IMG/VR virus record: IMGVR_UViG_2700989509_000029
DNA length: 20,646 bases
Direction: 5' to 3' (one strand)
DNA from: a virus
Lineage: Duplodnaviria > Heunggongvirae > Uroviricota > Caudoviricetes
Within the stretch, counting starts at the first letter, position 1, and the number at the start of each line of letters is the position of its first letter. Below are positions 15,001 through 18,000 of the stretch, one piece after another. A program made the position numbers.

Positions 15001-18000
15001 ATCAACATCATTAATCGCTGTTACCAGGTCGGTACTTTCCGTGACACGGGCACCATGAAAACGAGTTTCACTCATAGCTTCAGCCCCTTGTATCCGTTAA
15101 ATGATTCGGCAACAATCATCACCCACCACGCGCGTAATCTCACCCCTGCGCCGTTCTCCCGCCACGGCGACAACAAAAAGCAGTAACCCACTCCGCACGC
15201 ACATGCGACCATGCCGCACAGGGAGGGAAAGATGACCGACACCACCATGCAATTGCTCAGACAGAGCACAGACCCCGTGAAAATGCCGGATTTTGATATT
15301 CTCGCGGAGGGGGAAACGCTGTCCGGCGTGGCAGAGCGCCTGATGAGTCTGTCACTGACCGACAACCGGGGATTTGAAGCGGACCAGCTCACCATCACGC
15401 TGGATGATGCGGATGGTCAGTTGCAGCTACCGCCACGGGGCGCGCGCCTGACGGTTCTCATTGGCTGGAAAGGAGAACCGCTGACAGAAAAAGGCACTTA
15501 CATTGTTGATGAAATCGCTCACGAAGGACCGCCGGACAGGCTGACTGTTTCAGCCAGAAGCGCAGATTTTCGGGATGAATTTAACGTTAAACGTGAGGTG
15601 TCCTGGCATGATGTGACCGTTGAGCGCGTGGTATCCGCCATCGCTCATCGGTACGGTCTGAAACCACAAATCAGCGAAATGCTGATGGATATTGAAATCG
15701 ACCACGCCGACCAGACCGAAGAAAGCGACATGTCCTTCCTTACGCGCATGGCGGAAATGCTGGGCGCAATCACTACGGTAAAAAGCGGTAATCTGTTATT
15801 CATCATGCCAGGCGGTGGCGTGAACGCACAGGGCCAGCCGTTGCCCTCGTTCGCCATCACGCGCAGCAGTGGCGATCGCCATCAGTTCCGCATTGCTGAC
15901 CGCGAAGCGTATACGGGGGTACGCGCTTACTGGCTTGATCTTAATTACGGGAAAAAGAAAAAAGTCAGCGTGAAACGCCGCAAACCGAAAAAGGAGAAAA
16001 GCAGCAGCCGTGAAGGTGACTATATGGAAGGTGCGGAAGGCAACGTGTTTGTGTTACGCAAGACTTATCAGAACGAACAGGCAGCAAGACGCGCAGCGGC
16101 GGCAAAGTGGCAGCAGCTACAACGCGGAGCCGCATCATTCTCCATCACGCTGGCACGTGGTCGTGCAGAACTCTACCCCGAAATGCATGGCACGGTAACA
16201 GGATTTAAAAGCGAGATTGATAATCAGGACTGGATTATTGCAAAAGCCGAGCACACCATTGATAACAGCGGCTTTACCACGCAGCTTGAACTTGAGGCAA
16301 AAATCCCGGAATGGATAGCGGAAACAGAGTGAGCAACTTAAATATATTAACTCGCTTATAGCACTTAACAGTCTGACATCTAGCCTTGTCACAAAAATTG
16401 CAAGCGCCATCATATTCTCTTGACTCAAGATACCAATACAAGTGACTATGTAATCTTTTATGATGTTACCTCATTTGGGTTAATATATTAAAAGGAGTTG
16501 GAAAATGTCTCTAGTTACCCGCAATGTATTCATTGATACTGAGTTTTTTGTAAAAGCAAACCTGGACTTCAACTCAAAAACTATAAAATCATTTGAAGAA
16601 CTATGTAGAAATGATGAGTTCAGGCATATTTCTACAACAATTGTAGTTAAAGAAGTTGAACGAAAAATCATAGAGCATATACAAGAAGCATTGAAAGGGA
16701 TTAACAATTTCCGACGAAAGGCTGTTATCCTCAAAGAATATGAAGATGACAATATTAAAAATCTATTTTGTGAAATTAATGAAACAGACATTCAAGAAAA
16801 GGCATTAAGCGCATTTAATGGTTTCATGGAGGACTCAAACACAACTATTGTAGATATGTCGAAGGTGGACCTCAATGAGGTTATAGACATGTACTTTGAT
16901 AAAAAAAGCCCCTTTAGTGCGAAAAAACCTAACGAATTTCGAGACGCCTTCACTCTTTTAGCAATACGTTCCGCGCTAGGAGATAATGAAAAAATTTATG
17001 TGGTTTCAGAAGACCCTGACCTAAAAGGTTACTGTGAAGACAATGATAATTTCATAATTATAGGAGCACTAAACTTACTACTAGATGATTACAACAAACA
17101 CAATGACGAAAGAACTGGATTTATAGAACGTTTTTTAGAAAGCAAAAATGAAGAAATCATACAAAAATTAACGGAAGAATTAGAAACTGCTGAAGCTTAT
17201 AATTCTTCAACATGGGAAGACTCAGAGATTGATAGCTTTGAAATTACGAACATAAGCGAATTCGAACCCAAAATAATTCATTTGGATGACGAAAGTTGTC
17301 AAATTACTTTTGATGTTACTGTTAGTTTTAATGTCACTGCCAGCGGACCTGATACCGCAAACGGCTATTATGACAAAGAGGATGGAAAATTTTATACCTT
17401 TGACACCGTATCTAATCACGAGGAGGAGGAAAAGGATTTTACAGTAGAACTAGAATTATTCTTTGAAATAGACGAAGGCCAGTTTATCAATGATGAGTTT
17501 AATTTGCACATAAATGGACTGGATGCTGGTATTGAATTTTGTGTCGATGAAAACTCATGGGAAGACTATAGATAGCTCCTCACTCAGGGAGGGCTGTCAG
17601 TTGGAATCTGAATTGGGACAACTTAGAATGGTAGCAGCACCACGTTAAGGGAGGTCGCTATGTTCCGTTGTCCGCTTTGTGGCGCATCTGCCCGTATCCG
17701 CACCAGTCGTCCGGAAAATGATTCAAACACCGTGCGGCAAAAGTATTACCAGTGTAACAATCTGGAATGCGGCGTATGCTTCTCAACACTGGAAGCTTTC
17801 CATAAATTCACATCAAAACACGCCTCCGGCGTTCACTCTTCAGAAGGTATCCCGTGGCATGAACTGCCAGCTTCACACAGGGGAAACAATCAGATGAGTT
17901 TGCCTTTACCTCAGAATTAACAGGCAGAATTGCCGGAGCAACAAAAAAGCGATAGATTACGCGCGGGTGCCTTTCGGCTGATGGTCGGAGGGAATACCCG

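Follow-up and report, generated by a model that had tools for sequence, protein, structure and literature searches.

A PIN_12/DUF4935 gene inserted between D and ogr of a P2-like prophage as likely single-gene anti-phage cargo

The PIN-like proteins of the family PIN_12 (PF16289, formerly DUF4935) were recognized in 2017 as members of the VapC group, with a function then unknown, a length of ~350 residues, an alpha/beta C-terminal region that could not be assigned, and a usually monocistronic arrangement (Matelska 2017, PMC5499597). Two distant members of the family are now known to defend bacteria against phages, one alone and the other with a partner, and in both the defense requires PIN residues. 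The integron cassette brc24 (Cosus), which encodes a "PIN12" domain, confers complete resistance to T7 at a fitness cost of ~11%; protection drops more than 1e5-fold in the mutants T12A, D14A, and D96A, and the primers and the cassette sequence contain the motifs ITID14N, KKNEFPD153A, and VSQD177 as well as an acidic C-terminus (Kieffer et al., bioRxiv 10.1101/2024.07.02.601719). DS-5 (PN12) of DefensePredictor is a two-gene system (WP_021513008 and WP_021513009) in which the PIN_12 protein is WP_021513009, of 376 amino acids (aa); defense is abolished by D7A or E44A and likewise depends on the partner gene (PMC13092281). Both the DS-5 accessions and "PIN_12" proteins are listed for the gpA–gpQ hotspot of P2-like prophages (Table S5), no "PIN_12" protein being among the systems tested in that survey, which covered gpA–gpQ only and not the junction of D and ogr (Rousset et al., 2022, PMC9122126). 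Here we describe a PIN_12/DUF4935 gene (16505-17575, + strand, ATG start, 356 aa) that occupies the D–ogr junction in the late-gene region of a P2-like prophage (IMG/VR record IMGVR_UViG_2700989509_000029); the whole stretch of 20,646 nt is referred to below as the window.

The gene is accessory cargo, a self-contained PIN_12/DUF4935 determinant, and we consider it likely, by analogy with these systems, that it would protect the lysogen against other phages. It lies in an AT-rich island of ~1.28 kb (16343-17618), delimited by the drop in guanine-plus-cytosine (GC) content and by alignment to empty junctions, and missing from most D–ogr junctions. The GC content is 0.31-0.36 over 16300-17500; it rises to 0.47-0.52 from ogr onward, and gpD and the tail genes have 0.52-0.58. 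The conserved left flank is gpD, a late gene for the tail/baseplate hub (15211-16332, + strand; Pfam Phage_GPD, PF05954, E 1.5e-17), and the conserved right flank is ogr, encoding the zinc finger activator of the late genes (17660-17920, + strand; Pfam Ogr_Delta, PF04606, E 5e-14). When the segment 15933-17920 was searched against 5426 E. coli genomes it matched 1202, in which the 3' end of gpD is conserved, and the megablast pieces from empty junctions cover positions 1-421 and 1686-1988 of this query. Of 60 records sampled at even intervals, ~37 have D next to ogr (a span of ~710 bp, with 42 nt between the genes), nine have one inserted gene of at most ~1.4 kb between the two, and ten have them further apart. 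Since most P2-like prophages of E. coli have only ~42 nt, and no gene, between D and ogr, the island is inserted cargo. A single open reading frame (ORF) is present in the island, flanked by stretches of 172 nt (upstream) and 84 nt (downstream) without coding sequence on the + strand; the island has no second gene that could act as a partner of the DS-5 type, no adjacent co-oriented small ORF, and, between the D stop codon and the cargo ATG, no + strand ORF of at least 40 aa that could encode a VapB-type upstream antitoxin. The ribosome-binding site (RBS) AAGGAG (16492-16497, + strand) is 7 nt before the ATG. An earlier, sequence-only reading of this DNA had proposed an AT-rich island within a GC-rich late block, a strong RBS for its ORF, and an insertion between two normally adjacent genes, and each of these points holds.

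The protein matches PIN_12 at 74.9 bits (gathering cut-off 32, E 1.3e-20) over aa 8-172, corresponding to profile positions 1-171 of 172. The AlphaFold (AF2) model (predicted local distance difference test 88.3, predicted template modeling score 0.77) contains a PIN core with a helical insert at aa 45-110, linker helices at aa 189-227, and a beta-rich domain at aa 231-345. We accordingly divide the protein into a PIN domain that includes the long insert (aa 1-188; 16505-17068, + strand), a linker of three helices defined by DSSP on the models (aa 189-228; 17069-17188, + strand), and an acidic beta-rich C-terminal domain (aa 229-356; 17189-17572, + strand). The length of 356 aa, the beta-rich C-terminal domain with three helices, and the single-gene arrangement agree with the published description of the family, as do the VapC-group PIN fold and the conserved metal-binding acidic residues. 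An alignment of 44 homologues (38-79% identity) shows no variation in the N-terminal half at D11, T12, E50, E144, D147, S168, D170, and D172; in the predicted structure, this half adopts a PIN fold of the VapC type, and its metal-binding acids (D11, E50, D147, and D170) are all present and invariant. A PDB sequence search with the family profile returned nothing significant. The Pfam match and the predicted fold bear out the PIN-like nuclease of the sequence-only reading. All four acidic motifs from which it had been deduced are present (VFIDTEFF at aa 8, VVKEVERK at aa 47, LLAIRSALGDN at aa 151, and IYVVSEDPDL at aa 164), but the third conserved acid is not in LLAIRSALGDN, of which D160 is not conserved; it is D147, which lies with E144 in NEFRDAF. 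Three of the proposed mutation targets were also misnumbered, as positions 138, 161, and 163 are S, N, and K rather than aspartates, and the invariant residues are D11, E50, D147, D170, and D172.

A D/E-rich C-terminal half had likewise been predicted, and aa 200-356 do contain 28% aspartate plus glutamate (D/E) and 6% lysine plus arginine (K/R), with an isoelectric point (pI) of 4.05; the values for aa 229-356, which form a separate domain in the AF2 model, are 27% D/E, 4% K/R, and pI 4.05. This composition is family-wide (pI ~4.05, 27% D/E, 4-5% K/R), and the acidity is kept even where the sequence diverges; conserved motifs of the domain are NSSTWED, GPD, YDxED, and GIEFxVEE. A profile of the C-terminal domain searched against 1.84 billion representative proteins matched 241 clusters, nearly all of proteins of 345-385 aa with the domain at residues ~195-355. 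The domain therefore occurs only behind PIN_12, and the idea that it is a shuffled, mobile sensor module was rejected on the basis of this search. Fold searches matched no known DNA mimic; the domain has weak structural likeness to oligomerizing NTF2-like hubs. By analogy, this likeness and the hexamer that has been predicted for Cosus suggest that the domain may act as a hub, and its charge suggests that it may be a nucleic-acid mimic.

For comparison with Cosus, close full-length homologues (L133, L135, and L137) were used because the machine-read cassette sequence of the preprint is full of frameshifts. One of these (L133, 378 aa) matches PIN_12 with E 1.9e-36, shares 27% identity with the window protein across 259 residues (BLASTP, E 2e-14), and aligns to the window family profile over 292 columns (hhalign probability 98.6%, E 1e-15). 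Like the window gene, Cosus is a single gene of ~365-378 aa with an N-terminal PIN_12 domain and carriage on a mobile element, and the motifs xxIDx, KKNEFPDA, and VSxD are common to both. The C-terminal ~150 aa of Cosus are beta-rich and equally acidic (pI ~4.05, 24% D/E), with the same size and position as in the window clade. The two differ in that the window gene is prophage cargo with a predicted phenotype; Cosus belongs to an integron, as a cassette with an attC site, and has been shown experimentally to block T7. DS-5 also resembles the window gene in having a PIN_12 domain and in being cargo of an E. coli P2-like prophage, and its D7 and E44 align with D11 and E50 of the window protein; the hhalign match of its PIN_12 subunit to the window family (probability 94%, 191 columns) covers the PIN domain only. 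In contrast to the window island, DS-5 works only with a second gene (encoding DUF5830 and an AcrIF4-like domain), which precedes its PIN_12 gene by 17 nt; in addition, its C-terminal region cannot be aligned to the window family and is less acidic (18% D/E), and it occupies a different hotspot (gpA–gpQ rather than D–ogr). The single-protein PIN system DS-3 of DefensePredictor was rejected as a match, being a 340-aa protein with a split PIN domain that is labeled "PIN8"; its authors see no close relationship between it and the PIN_12 protein of DS-5 (PMC13092281). VapC itself, with only ~10-14% identity, lacks the 65-residue helical PIN insert and the fused 170-aa acidic C-terminal region of the window protein, and the window has no VapB antitoxin gene.

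Homologues of the window protein are widespread. A search of 5.8 billion proteins yielded 109 homologue clusters, all of ~345-365 aa where full length and nearly all of 354-365 aa with full-length coverage and 38-79% identity, from Enterobacterales, Pseudomonas, Xanthomonas, Acinetobacter, Aeromonas, Variovorax, and one cyanobacterium; their annotation is only "PIN domain-containing" or DUF4935. The island itself occurs at 99.5% identity in 16 of the 5426 complete E. coli genomes and is always annotated there as a PIN domain-containing protein. In P2-like prophages, homologues of 42-79% identity form islands of ~1 kb (34-38% GC amid 55-60% GC) at four junctions: D–ogr (L092, at the junction also occupied in the window, L001, and L083-85), G–FI at the P2 Z/fun position (L088), gpA–gpQ at the P2 tin/old position (L097, L098, and the Serratia locus L170), and S–V (Enterobacter phage ENT4, L089, and L091). 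Both classical P2 loci, Z/fun and tin/old, thus hold homologues in other prophages, and like D–ogr they are places where a small, variable, low-GC insertion separates two conserved genes. Other settings include a Yersinia pseudotuberculosis plasmid (near MazEF), an ICE-like element (integrative and conjugative element), and chromosomal variable islands. The gene is lower in GC than its flanks in 41 of 41 loci (mean difference 12.4 points), and all insertions found for this PIN_12 clade consist of one low-GC gene. In Serratia, the 79%-identical protein (P0002) is encoded in gpA–gpQ directly beside a Lamassu operon (CTD7, MC3, and LmuB_C). This locus in Serratia marcescens (L170-L172, 6001-11186) is a degraded P2-like gpA–gpQ locus in which the homologue is directly upstream of the Lamassu-type operon; a phospholipase-like gene paired with an ankyrin gene lies on its upstream side.

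The inserts at D–ogr differ from genome to genome, occur in either orientation, and are mutually exclusive, which is the behavior of a cargo hotspot. One occupant is a TIR/SEFIR protein that matches the bSEFIR model of PADLOC (E 1e-43). Five others have no PADLOC match: a 389-aa DUF3800 protein (L162, 801-1970), a 500-aa PIN_4 protein from E. coli O111:H8 (L163, 6635-8137), a 340-aa protein with a sub-threshold match to HEPN_RiboL-PSP (L164, 830-1852), and two hypothetical proteins that also lack domain matches, of 384 aa (L166, 828-1982) and 221 aa (L167, 904-1569). By their position these five are candidate defense genes. A ParA-like ATPase and an alpha/beta hydrolase were also found at the junction. 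Alignments with an empty site and with other cargo show that occupied junctions share a short left flank, CTTAAATGTATTA, after the D stop codon. On the right, an alignment of nine cargo junctions and one empty site defines a module (17574-17659, + strand) with ~55 conserved nt, comprising a promoter-like TTGGAA-17-TAGAAT (17601-17629) followed by the ogr RBS GGGAGG. The empty junction keeps only the TAGAAT part, and the complete TTGGAA-17-TAGAAT is kept with any cargo (right flanks of L161-L168). We infer from these shared sequences that cargo is swapped by recombination in the D–ogr flanks, and that the right flank would preserve or restore an ogr promoter displaced by the insertion, the -35 element of which would otherwise be in the end of D.

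The analysis above establishes the fold, catalytic residues, and fixed architecture of the protein and the cargo behavior and hotspot positions of its gene; a defense function is the most likely one, by analogy in location and with relatives of about 25-27% identity. With one ORF and no partner in the island, the gene has the single-gene organization of Cosus, and could by the same analogy be sufficient for defense. As no antitoxin gene is present, the protein would be held inactive in uninfected cells by other means than a separate antitoxin; infection would then activate it via the C-terminal domain, acting as an oligomerization hub or as a sensor. The Mg2+-dependent PIN site would next cut RNA (tRNA, rRNA, or mRNA, as VapC does) or phage nucleic acid, and phage production would stop either through translation shut-off (abortive infection) or through direct damage. 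By analogy with VapC, the protein is probably an endonuclease acting on RNA. The single-gene defense role proposed in the sequence-only reading is thus the best-supported one in view of the hotspot locations and the experimentally validated relatives, and that reading identified both the protein and its nature as cargo correctly from nucleotides only. Its term "undescribed" does not apply to PIN_12/DUF4935, a family known since 2017, listed at gpA–gpQ in 2022, and shown to include defense proteins in Cosus/Brc24 and DS-5; for the specific PIN_12 clade of the window, no prior description was found.

Several points weigh against a defense role or against the mechanism outlined above. The D153A and D177A mutants of Cosus, which correspond to D147 and D170 of the window protein, were constructed, but the text of the preprint does not mention either as strongly defective, and an evolved escaper of the Cosus D14A mutant mapped to a tail protein (bioRxiv 10.1101/2024.07.02.601719); on both counts, the mechanism of Cosus may be no plain four-acid nuclease reaction. 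The window clade is only ~27% identical to Cosus, and homology between the C-terminal regions could not be demonstrated (hhalign 21%, E 1e-3, 86 collinear columns; hidden Markov model E 0.04). Neither a substrate nor a trigger has been reported for Cosus or DS-5. The 356-aa protein has no usable match in PADLOC-DB v2, NCBIfam, or PHROGs; PADLOC has no model for Cosus-like relatives or for those of the L097 type. Finally, a scan of the region found no terminator-like site after D or after the cargo gene, and, because no terminator separates D from the gene, the latter may also be transcribed late in the lytic cycle of the prophage.

This last observation, together with the common orientation of D, the cargo gene, and ogr, is what favors the first of four alternative explanations, each of them weaker than defense and even in combination rather unlikely: that the gene serves the lytic cycle of the prophage itself, or counter-defense, by read-through from the late D transcript. 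In this case, the acidic domain would mimic nucleic acid and block host restriction or other DNA-binding defenses, or the PIN domain would degrade host RNA; a pI of 4.05 with 27% D/E is a charge typical of DNA mimics, and it is the acidity that is conserved beyond sequence. We regard the explanation as improbable in either form. The only relatives that have been tested protect the cell against phage and do not aid the phage, homologues are found on plasmids, ICE-like elements, and chromosomal variable islands without phage genes, the fold searches did not retrieve known DNA mimics, and the gene has its own RBS behind a 172-nt AT-rich upstream region.

The gene could alternatively be a lysogenic-conversion gene with a role in host physiology unrelated to phages, for example in stress-responsive RNA turnover. 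P2 hotspots are known to hold non-defense cargo such as partition systems and a cytolethal distending toxin (PMC9122126), to which the ParA-like ATPase and alpha/beta hydrolase at D–ogr may be compared, but the tested family members defend against phage, and the family has a patchy spread, within Proteobacteria and outside them, and is low in GC whatever the host, as is typical of defense genes; such a role is therefore quite improbable. Very improbable, in our view, is a selfish addiction module in which a PIN toxin with a cis-acting C-terminal antitoxin penalizes the loss of the prophage or plasmid and has no part in phage defense. Post-segregational killing needs a separate labile antitoxin gene, which is missing here, and a covalently fused inhibitor cannot be selectively lost; moreover, the positions occupied are those at which phage-defense cargo accumulates. 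These considerations outweigh the VapC-like nature of the PIN domain, the location of homologues beside MazEF on the Yersinia plasmid and in mobile elements, and the 11% fitness cost of Cosus, all of which would suit an addiction module. A decaying or inactive remnant without current function would be consistent with the rarity of the island in E. coli (16 of 5426 complete genomes), but is extremely unlikely for an intact ORF with full-length conservation at 38-79% identity over many genera, invariant catalytic and C-terminal motifs, and a confident structure prediction.

If the anti-phage interpretation is true, a prophage-borne clade of antitoxin-less PIN nucleases, widespread in Enterobacterales, Pseudomonas, Acinetobacter, and beyond, would join the small set of validated PIN_12 defense proteins (Cosus and DS-5). 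The gene is also a compact, naturally single-gene model, in an E. coli P2-like prophage, with which to ask by what means an acidic domain fused to a VapC-type nuclease may hold it back and set it free. D–ogr, as a variable cargo site with one known defense gene (bSEFIR) and several uncharacterized candidates, is a cheap place to look for more defense genes, as gpA–gpQ was in 2022. Neither the D–ogr junction as a cargo hotspot nor the conserved super-acidic domain as a family feature was found described in the literature searched, which comprised one paper collection. A further proposal combines the two, namely that D–ogr adds a third anti-phage cargo hotspot, not reported until now, to those of E. 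coli P2-like prophages, with mostly single-gene candidates as occupants (this PIN_12 clade, the PIN_4, DUF3800, and HEPN-like proteins, and the two hypothetical proteins), and that the super-acidic domain embodies a bait or hub principle of sensing undescribed for PIN defense. In this scheme the domain, as a nucleic-acid-mimicking bait or an oligomerization hub, would detect a phage nucleic-acid-binding protein and thereby release the PIN nuclease; we hold the combined proposal to be doubtful.

The regulatory signals of the cargo gene are less distinct. A candidate promoter region (16386-16448, + strand) contains TTGTCA-16-CATCAT at 16386-16413, which matches 9 of 12 consensus positions. The possible sigma70 -35 element noted in the earlier annotation, TTGACT, is present at 16420-16425, but is followed only by a weak -10 and was not listed by the consensus scan, in which promoter-like sites were no more frequent than chance (8 compared with 5.4 +/- 2.7 in shuffled sequence). 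A 14-nt inverted repeat, TTAAATATATTAAC (16338-16351) and GTTAATATATTAAA (16479-16492), 93% complementary and with 127 nt between its arms, flanks the untranslated region ahead of the PIN_12 gene on both sides; it may represent an operator pair or, the sequence being AT-rich, have arisen by chance. A regex search of the window for CAACTTA[AG]A found exactly two copies, one at each end of the island, as a 9-nt direct repeat (CAACTTAAA at 16334-16342, + strand, and CAACTTAGA at 17619-17627); in the empty site, GAGCAACTTAGAATAGCGG, only one copy occurs. A repeat of such short length could be due to chance or could be a recombination scar.

Beyond the insertion, the window encodes the tail fiber gene H (6017-8149, + strand), the fiber-assembly gene G (8149-8727, + strand), and gpU, the tape measure, E, FII, and the sheath FI (9500-15075, - strand). 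This FI-FII-E-T-U block is on the strand opposite to D and ogr, and is thus inverted in comparison with P2, where the canonical order is FI FII E T U D ogr; prophages of E. coli O145 and O111 (L001 and L163) share this layout, and the homologue-bearing locus L092 has the canonical order. Downstream of ogr are a hok/gef toxin gene (18112-18252), a Mu-like com zinc-ribbon gene (18479-18685), and an N6/N4 DNA methylase gene (18630-19421), the start of which overlaps com; the chromosomal gene flk lies beyond it. The pairing of com with the methylase gene resembles the com/mom arrangement of Mu, and this pair is missing from a related prophage that is integrated at ihfA and carries both ogr and hok. 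A second AT-rich island (GC 0.33-0.38) is located between G and gpU at 8730-9500, the P2 Z/fun position. It contains an ORF of 201 aa (8771-9376, - strand) with a sub-threshold match to a hexapeptide transferase (23.6 bits, cut-off 27), which may be another cargo gene.

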